Shown: piece by piece, positions 17,190 through 18,596 of the stretch | How positions within the stretch are numbered: position 1 is the stretch's first letter | How the letters are laid out: every line of letters begins with the position of its first letter | Source: an uncultured Actinomycetes bacterium | Lineage (GTDB): Bacteria; Actinomycetota; Thermoleophilia; UBA2241 | Assembly (NCBI GenBank): GCA_963725665.1 | Contig: CAVRZA010000001.1 | Span: forward strand, 224,001 to 288,000 | Reading direction: 5' to 3' | Length of the DNA stretch: 64,000 bases | Position numbers and translations under genes: made by a program | Notes under the pieces: generated by a model | Database searches by the model: none | Seen by the model: only the letters and a program-made list of their open reading frames with translations | Told to the model about the DNA's origin: nothing

Positions 17190-18596
17190 TCAGGCTGGGC
17201 CGACGGAGCTCTTCTCGCGCAGCCGCTCGACGCTGTTGACACGCACGTTGAGCAGCCGGGCGATGCGCACCTTGGCCTCGATGCCCTTGGCGGCTCCCGG
17301 CACGCCCGTGACGACGCCGATGTCGAGCCGCTCGCGCAGCTCGCGCATGACCGTCGAGTCGCTCAGCTCCCCCAGCCCGACACCCAGCTTGTCAGCCACG
17401 TAGCGCTTCGCCTGCGGCAGCCTCATCTTCTTGAGCTGCATGCGCGCCACCAGATCTCCGGCGGTGCGGATGCCGCCCATGCCCGAGGCCAGCGAGTGGC
17501 AGACGGACATCCCCATGGGATCTCCGCCGCCCACCTACAAGCCGTCGGCTCGGCCGATCTCGACCAGGGCGACGCCGGCGCGGGTGACGACGTCCGACGG
17601 CTGTACCTCGACGGTGGGGACCCCACCCACGCCCATGCCGACGTTGGCGTGGATGGGGATCTCGGCCACCCGCGAGCACTCCTTGACGAAGGTCACCGCG
17701 CGCGCCACGTTCCAGGGCGCGGACTTGCCGGTGTTGGTCGTGCTCACCGGTCCGAAGATGTGCGCCCCCGCCCGCTCGGCGGCCTTGACTTGCTGGTGTG
17801 GCCACAGCCCTGCCAGCCGCGTGCCCTTGTACTCGAGCTCGCCGTGGAAGCCGAGGACGAGCTCGGTCGCCATGCCCACCTCGATGGCGAGGTCGGTCGT
17901 GGCGGCGAGCTCCTCGATCGCCTGTAGCGTGGCGAGGAACTCGGCGTCGCCTGCCGACCCGGTCGTGTCGAAGTCGATGCCGTCGGCGCCCATTGCCGCC
18001 ATCGCCCTGCCCATGGTCACCATGTCGCGGCGCAGGGTCTCGGCCGCCTCGAGCTGAGTCTCGCGGGCCTCCTCGATGCGTCCCTTGGGCAGCAGGTCGG
18101 CTGGGTTCGGGAAGGGGCCGTCGGGCTGAAAGTAGAGGCCCATGTTGGGCATCGCGCCGTAGAAGAGGGGCACGATGCAATCGAGGAGCGCCTGCTCCAT
18201 GCAGAGCTGCTCGAGGGCTACGAGCGCCTTGGCCGGCTTGAACGAGTAGTCGGGGTGCCCGACCTCCATGGTGTCAAAGCCCAGCGCGCGCTCCATCACG
18301 CGTATGCCCTGCTCGCGGCCGAGGGGCACGCCCACCCCGCTCGACATCTGCCCACTGTAGAGGGTGTTGGCGCAGCCGTCCTTGGTGAGGACGACCTCGT
18401 GACCGGGCGGCACGCCGGCGATGCGCCCCGGGTAGGCGAAGAGGTCGTGCAGGTAGTCGATCTCGTTGGCTTCGAGAGCGGGAATCTTCGCCTTGGCGGC
18501 CGCCGCCTCCGAGCCCTCTACGAGCTCACGCCGCAACCCGTCGGGCGTGAGCTCGACGGCGTATCCGTCACCCATGCGGGTCGTGATCGTAGTCAT
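17190..18596 (-). CDS. mtbB: Dimethylamine:corrinoid methyltransferase with in-frame amber codon (pyrrolysine, residue 354)
   Basis: [36 protein letters not shown] and GMGVGGVP motifs; ...GRADGL-TAG(17535-17537)-[30 protein letters not shown] continues in frame; 468 aa in total. Confidence 0.92.

Follow-up and report, generated by a model that had tools for sequence, protein, structure and literature searches.

A dimethylamine methyltransferase (mtbB) gene with an in-frame TAG at the pyrrolysine site in a high-GC, putatively actinobacterial contig

Introduction

Pyrrolysine-dependent methylamine loci with an in-frame TAG at a conserved site are described for Bilophila and Acetohalobium in PMC7593587, a text that also describes, for Bilophila mttB, the same problem of misannotation that affects the gene studied here. 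PylRS genes have been reported from 81 bacterial genomes, with “two Actinobacteria” among them (PMC9630628), a finding that is repeated in PMC11764691. [quoted passage not shown] According to the same source, anaerobic methylamine use rivals methylotrophic methanogens for dimethylamine in wetlands.

The present study concerns a single mtbB gene within a 64-kb stretch of DNA, the whole of which is referred to as the window. A first-pass annotation of this DNA had overstated the novelty of the gene, as both Actinobacteria with PylRS (PMC9630628) and Actinobacteriota with pyrrolysine-encoding mttB and mtbB (PMC10805028) have already been reported. Published work covers the enzyme family as well as the recoding and its occurrence in Actinomycetota, and the locus is no new kind of system. 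A protein-level demonstration of pyrrolysine in Actinomycetota was not found in the literature searched. What the window adds is a high-GC example, on a long contig, to the few Actinomycetota that have been implicated in anaerobic methylamine use.

Results

A gene divided by a single TAG codon

The mtbB gene is located on the minus strand at 17190..18596 and comprises 468 codons, including one in-frame TAG, followed by a TGA stop (17192..17190). It likely starts at the ATG at 18596 (18596..18594), as this is preceded, at a distance of 5 bases, by a putatively functional Shine-Dalgarno-like sequence, GAGGGGGAG (18602..18610, minus strand), which contains the run GGGGGAG. The N-terminus of a related database protein (P0002) has the same 11 residues as the window protein when read from this ATG.

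As had been noted at first pass, the gene appears as two ORFs in the same frame that are split by one TAG, the first at 17535..18602 (355 aa, with a GTG start) and the second at 17190..17534 (114 aa), which starts with the GTG immediately 3' of the TAG. The minus-strand codons around this position are GAC GGC TTG TAG GTG GGC GGC GGA GAT CCC. The part before the TAG (17538..18596, minus strand) encodes residues 1-353, and the part after it (17193..17534, minus strand) residues 355-468. The TAG itself (17535..17537, minus strand) is codon 354 and the predicted pyrrolysine codon; it falls on the pyrrolysine column of the family and provides positions 1-3 of an RNA family match described below. 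When 18596..17190 is translated with TAG as pyrrolysine (O), a product of 468 residues results, with O at residue 354 in the context ADGL-O-VGGGDP and with the motif GDLVARM thereafter, which bears out the 468-aa read-through product that had been proposed. The description of the TAG as a clean amber codon, as opposed to the indels found elsewhere, is also correct, in that mtbB is without frameshift whereas several other genes of the window are frameshifted. Every element of the original observation on mtbB in the window was thus confirmed.

Family assignment

Read through the TAG, the protein matches Pfam family PF09505 (Dimeth_Pyl) in a single stretch, with residues 5-461 covering profile positions 4-462 of 463 (631.5 bits, E=9.4e-190; cutoff 25 bits). 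It also scores 529.7 bits, above the cutoff of 369.1 bits, against the NCBIfam equivalog TIGR02368 ([dimethylamine--corrinoid protein] Co-methyltransferase). Each of the two pieces alone matches its own part of PF09505, at profile positions 4-353 and 356-462, so that the break is confined to the interval from profile position 353 to 356, without any indel. The proposed membership in the MtbB family therefore stands, the match being full-length and above the curated cutoffs of both profiles. These profile matches are far beyond chance and identify the gene as a member of the MtbB family.

Among solved structures, none was found to be related by sequence to the window protein, the best match being FkbO (E=0.23). 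An AlphaFold model computed with a 20-row alignment (pLDDT 85.6, pTM 0.89) places residue 354 in a strand formed by residues 352-355. A fold search of the PDB with this model returned weak matches only (TMq 0.37 or less), among them 3bof_A and 4m3p_D. We take these to be general (beta/alpha)8 barrels, 3bof_A being a methionine-synthase barrel and 4m3p_D being BHMT; the fold matches listed included neither an MtmB nor an MttB chain. At such TMq values, a structural link between the model and PDB enzymes that goes beyond the fold class was rejected.

The TAG lies on the pyrrolysine column of the family

A scan of GTDB species genomes with MtbB gave 207 relatives; the 80 best of these, in 78 loci, were retained. 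The column was located with a pattern that permits any residue at the pyrrolysine position (70 copies), and a looser pattern was used for the 10 remaining loci. A TAG is present at the homologous column in all 80 mtbB copies of the 78 loci (best 80 of the 207 relatives), and these copies are from Methanosarcinaceae, Methanomassiliicoccales, Bacillota, Desulfobacterales and Actinomycetota. This was a check that the first-pass annotation had suggested, and it places the TAG of the window on the MtbB pyrrolysine column. In alignment A3, at least 90% of the rows agree at this column.

The protein database mirrors the same interruption. N-terminal pieces of 346-356 aa make up 113 of the 120 best matches, among which only P0082 covers the full query. 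Four retrieved N-terminal pieces terminate in ADGL; P0002, P0011 and P0028 have this end, and P0042 (495 aa) continues out of frame before that point. With the 114-aa tail as the query, 2783 of 2814 candidates are C-terminal pieces. Split MtbB pieces up to 96% identical to the window protein occur in public metagenomes. The expectation that standard annotation miscalls such genes is borne out by these two sets of fragments, in that gene calling splits them. The window's own C-terminal piece (17193-17516 region) is itself present as a separate database protein of 108 aa (P0123), in a cluster of 38 members; its contig is listed with a length of 576,513 bp, and the DNA around the window thus extends far past the 64 kb.

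These data also bear on whether the TAG could be an error of sequencing or assembly in an error-rich contig. Breaks of the indel type do occur in the window, for example in a DUF6421 gene at about 22010-22030, but the breaks examined are frame shifts and not substitutions. Moreover, the TAG is positioned on the very column that is TAG in every one of the 80 copies (best 80 of the 207 relatives), and the database pieces of up to 96% identity are mostly 346-356 aa long, with the four retrieved ending in ADGL at this point. We consider the chance that the TAG is such an error to be practically negligible.

A few predicted proteins do not conform to the common pattern. The pyrrolysine column is occupied by Q in P0288 and P0082 and by L in P0290, which may reflect a sense codon or translation with an alternative code. 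P0247, an MtbB-like protein of full length (463 aa) with 39% identity to the window protein, has W at the column (VDML-W-ATTGDP) and is a candidate for a homologue of MtbB that does not use pyrrolysine.

Nearest relatives

The nearest genome relatives of the window protein (79% and 64% identity) are both encoded by the Actinomycetota MAG bog_752, on the loci L001 (PLTW01000076.1) and L002, respectively. A quick maximum-likelihood analysis of 81 rows grouped the window gene with L001 (SH-aLRT 99) and then with L002 (99), apart from the archaeal MtbB sequences. The probable actinobacterial affinity that had been suggested for this high-GC DNA agrees with bog_752 being the nearest genome relative. 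A protein-atlas search with a second protein, GcvPB, gave a mixture of taxa (Bacillota, Thermoproteota and Pseudomonadota) and did not help to place the organism. Taken together, the MtbB tree, a G+C content of 69.8% and the domain repertoire make an assignment of the window to the phylum Actinomycetota reasonable, if indirect.

In L001, positions 1-5925 carry a cluster in the order mttB(TAG)–corrinoid protein–mtbB(TAG)–hemB, with a PYLIS_3 match in mttB at 1020-1119, the corrinoid protein gene at 1507-2196, the mtbB TAG at 3394 and hemB at 4270-5304. The corrinoid protein consists of B12-binding and B12-binding_2 domains, and its best NCBIfam matches are of the MtgC and MtbC types, both below cutoffs. 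The second bog_752 mtbB, in L002, has kept the TAG and is found at a contig end, beside genes for an aldehyde dehydrogenase and a TetR regulator. The 10 kb of sequence upstream of this copy lack a corrinoid gene, and the contig stops inside mtbB.

Coding constraint beyond the TAG and stop codon usage

The frame remains open over the 114 codons after the TAG, and their composition (GC1/2/3 = 0.71/0.47/0.92) is gene-like. In both pieces of mtbB GC3 (0.90-0.91) agrees with that of the neighbouring genes, which argues against a recent foreign insert. A comparison of the window with L001 gave Nei-Gojobori dN/dS values of 0.12 before and 0.25 after the TAG, estimates that are based on no more than three actinobacterial DNA sequences and in which a strong GC3 bias distorts dS. 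In the 111 codons compared after the TAG, there are 20, 13 and 44 differences at codon positions 1, 2 and 3, respectively, a pattern that is the signature of coding constraint. The comparison shows that the sequence after the TAG evolves as a coding sequence, with purifying selection apparently acting on both sides of the codon.

Among 47 Pfam-supported ORF ends in the window, TGA is used 27 times, TAG 18 times and TAA twice, counts that are approximate, since one TAG is the predicted pyrrolysine codon itself and some ends belong to fragments of frameshifted genes. Only mtbB has a coding-like continuation past its TAG. The remaining 17 Pfam-supported ORFs with a TAG end lack such a continuation, so that the codon functions as a stop in this genome. 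TAG thus seems to be a normal and frequent stop codon in a genome that would also use it for pyrrolysine.

Read-through of the TAG by means other than pyrrolysine could come about, for example, through reassignment of the codon or through an amber suppressor of general action. We found nothing that speaks positively for this, the data closest to it being the residues Q, L or W at the column in P0082, P0288, P0290 and P0247. The 17 other Pfam-supported ORFs that end in TAG are without coding-like continuation, and the TAG is kept in 80 of 80 genomic copies (best 80 of 207), which is what a dedicated pyrrolysine site predicts. Read-through of this kind is therefore very unlikely.

An RNA family match that begins on the TAG

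The 100 nt that begin with the TAG (17438..17537, minus strand) match model positions 1-100 of Rfam family RF02509 PYLIS_2 (“Pyrrolysine insertion sequence mtbB”). The score is 68.1 bits (E=2.8e-14), compared with a gathering score of 36, and this is the sole gathering-level Rfam match across the 64-kb window. PYLIS_2 matches also begin on the TAG in L001 (69.4 bits), L002 (69.5 bits), L003, L016 and L051. PMC3639795 defines such regions by the 100 bases that follow the UAG and describes their role as unclear.

In the window, the 100 nt from the UAG are predicted to fold with -57.2 kcal/mol (z=-3.07), and 2 of 200 shuffled sequences were as good. The z-scores of the relatives are -0.60 (L001) and -1.07 (L002), and the 5' hairpin of the window is kept in neither of them. 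A compensatory change affects only one of 35 predicted pairs in a comparison of these three sequences (window, L001 and L002), and the 3' hairpin, which is kept, coincides with the invariant coding motif GIRTxGDLVARM. The fold after the UAG was rejected as evidence for a functional RNA element, as the relatives fold poorly and there is essentially no covariation. In relation to the Rfam model, the window has in common a full-length match above the gathering score that starts at the UAG, but it differs by ten non-standard pairs in the first hairpin of the model, as aligned by cmscan, and by a 5' hairpin of its own that is absent from L001 and L002. We treat the match as a sequence marker of the pyrrolysine site and not as proof of a functional structure.

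Genomic context

The window mtbB is solitary and has an unrelated context. On one side is a convergent aldo/keto reductase gene (16178..17137, plus strand), which matches PF00248 with 233 bits and for which all NCBIfam matches are below cutoffs. On the other side, a macrolide-type (GT1) glycosyltransferase gene (18672..19940, minus strand) with UDPGT and EryCIII-like_C domains ends 75 nt before the mtbB start; its match to TIGR01426 MGT (profile positions 5-390 of 393, 105 bits) is below cutoff. This is followed by a gene for a DUF308/HdeD-like membrane protein (19976..20725, minus strand; PF03729, 91 bits). A scan of 16900-20900 gave no promoter-like site and two terminator-like sites, compared with 1.0 expected, both of them within coding sequence.

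Partner genes were not detected in the window by any of the searches applied. ARAGORN, which detected tRNA-Pyl in L016, found no tRNA gene, pylT included, in the 64 kb. A Pfam scan of the 131 window ORFs with a GC3 of at least 0.76 revealed no B12-binding, MTTB, PylS, PylB/C/D or pterin-binding domain, and neither RamA nor a methyl-THF/CoM transferase was found in the 64-kb window. When the MttB, corrinoid and pterin proteins of L001 and L016 were compared with the window by tblastn, there was no credible match; a weak one (25% identity, 33.5 bits), antisense to a cytochrome gene, was taken as spurious. A gene for an MtbC-type corrinoid protein is likewise missing from the surroundings of mtbB within the 64 kb. 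Adjacency of a corrinoid gene to mtbB is usual but not obligatory, so that the absence of such a neighbour does not exclude membership in the MtbB family.

This isolation has to be considered in the light of a different history, in which mtbB is a relic that goes unread, having strayed from its operon, in an organism that lost the pyrrolysine machinery or never possessed it. Translation would then stop at codon 354, and the 353-residue product would be inactive or have another role. The solitary position of mtbB, without a corrinoid or pyl gene in 64 kb, is in line with such a history when set against the mttB–corrinoid–mtbB cluster of L001, as are the several frameshift-broken genes of the window, which indicate that decay or assembly error is common. 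However, the sequence past the TAG has retained its frame, a gene-like composition and a coding pattern of substitution, and mtbB is without frameshift. Also, the L002 copy keeps its TAG although its 10 kb of upstream sequence are likewise free of corrinoid genes (its contig stops inside the gene). On balance, we regard a relic as rather improbable.

Several other features of the window were recorded. The DUF6421 gene (20881-23021, plus strand) switches frame at about 22010-22030, as judged from its GC3 profile and Pfam coordinates, and further regions that appear to be broken by frameshifts are present at 24364-26189 (minus strand) and at 27640-28485, 33088-34676 and 60222-60785 (plus strand). 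ORFs with partial domains only were found for transketolase, GcvPA, two short-chain dehydrogenases and 3-hydroxyacyl-CoA dehydrogenase. The frameshifts could be assembly indels or real decay, and mtbB is unaffected by them.

An ORF of ~877 aa (1736-4369, minus strand) contains multihaem cytochrome domains (cytochrome c7, c552, MtrC/MtrF-like and c3). For a putative actinobacterium this is noteworthy, and it is in keeping with a lifestyle of anaerobic respiration. A large regulatory protein is encoded at 13993-16176 (plus strand) and has HATPase_c_2 (anti-sigma-like), PAS, GAF and SpoIIE phosphatase domains, an architecture that is common in Actinomycetota. Six stretches of RTX calcium-binding repeats, with a Peptidase_M91 domain at the C-terminus, are encoded by an ORF at 44854-46743 (minus strand). 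A group of genes for sulfur relay and Fe-S assembly at 48156-51009 (plus strand) comprises TusA, a DsrE-like protein, a class-V aminotransferase (cysteine desulfurase-like) and a protein with a NifU-like N-terminal domain.

Discussion

Of the explanations considered, we favour, and hold to be probable, that the window carries an intact and selected mtbB gene of the pyrrolysine type, belonging to a high-GC bacterium related to bog_752, in which pyrrolysyl-tRNA(CUA) decodes the UAG of codon 354, so that an enzyme of 468 residues results. The use of pyrrolysine by the organism is what we infer by analogy with the family. For annotation, the gene should be recorded as one pyrrolysine-containing MtbB and not as two fragments or a pseudogene.

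Under this explanation, a tRNA-Pyl (CUA) charged by PylRS would read the UAG at codon 354 and so allow synthesis of the 468-residue MtbB. The pyrrolysine of the enzyme would activate dimethylamine, with transfer of a methyl group to a partner protein that carries the corrinoid in its Co(I) state, and the methylated corrinoid protein would pass this group to a C1 carrier, a step that would require a second methyltransferase. A reductive activase of the RamA type would keep the corrinoid reduced. The genes for pylTSBCD, the corrinoid protein, the activase and the second methyltransferase would be encoded elsewhere in the genome, outside the window.

With TAG common as a stop, general read-through would be costly, and this favours conditional expression of the pyrrolysine machinery. 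In Acetohalobium arabaticum the machinery is conditionally expressed. A more far-reaching proposal, which we advance tentatively and regard as possible but doubtful, is that the lineage as such decodes UAG as pyrrolysine while about one third of its genes end in TAG, with a stand-alone MtbB and with the corrinoid and pyl genes elsewhere. If so, insertion of pyrrolysine would have to be either conditional, the machinery being induced only on methylamines, or favoured at particular sites. The unusually stable hairpin directly after the UAG in the window copy (z=-3.07) might serve as an aid peculiar to the lineage. The long contig would then also be a concrete target for obtaining protein-level proof of pyrrolysine in Actinomycetota.

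Comparison with known systems

Among bacterial systems outside the Actinomycetota, the Syntrophomonadaceae MAG L016 is comparable in having an mtbB with TAG at the conserved site (52% identity to the window protein). Its mtbB is surrounded by pylT and by genes for three corrinoid proteins, MttB, a non-pyrrolysine MttB homologue, a BCCT transporter and a pterin-binding methyltransferase, whereas none of these flanking partners is near mtbB in the window.

The MtbB proteins of Methanosarcinaceae, the model family for PF09505 and TIGR02368, are of the same family and length as the window protein, with one TAG at the same column and with the motifs DG[IL]-O-[IV]G.GDP and GDLVARM in common. They differ from the window protein in sequence (50-55% identity) and in setting, as the putative host of the window gene is bacterial and high-GC and the gene is without an adjacent corrinoid-protein gene. 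In methanogens, the methyl acceptor is coenzyme M.

The closest correspondence is with the mtbB genes of bog_752. The L001 copy is clustered with mttB, a corrinoid protein gene and hemB, whereas that of the window is situated between a glycosyltransferase and an aldo/keto reductase gene. In spite of this difference in arrangement, the window and bog_752 sequences form one clade, their TAG codons share one column, and PYLIS_2 matches are common to the window, L001 and L002.
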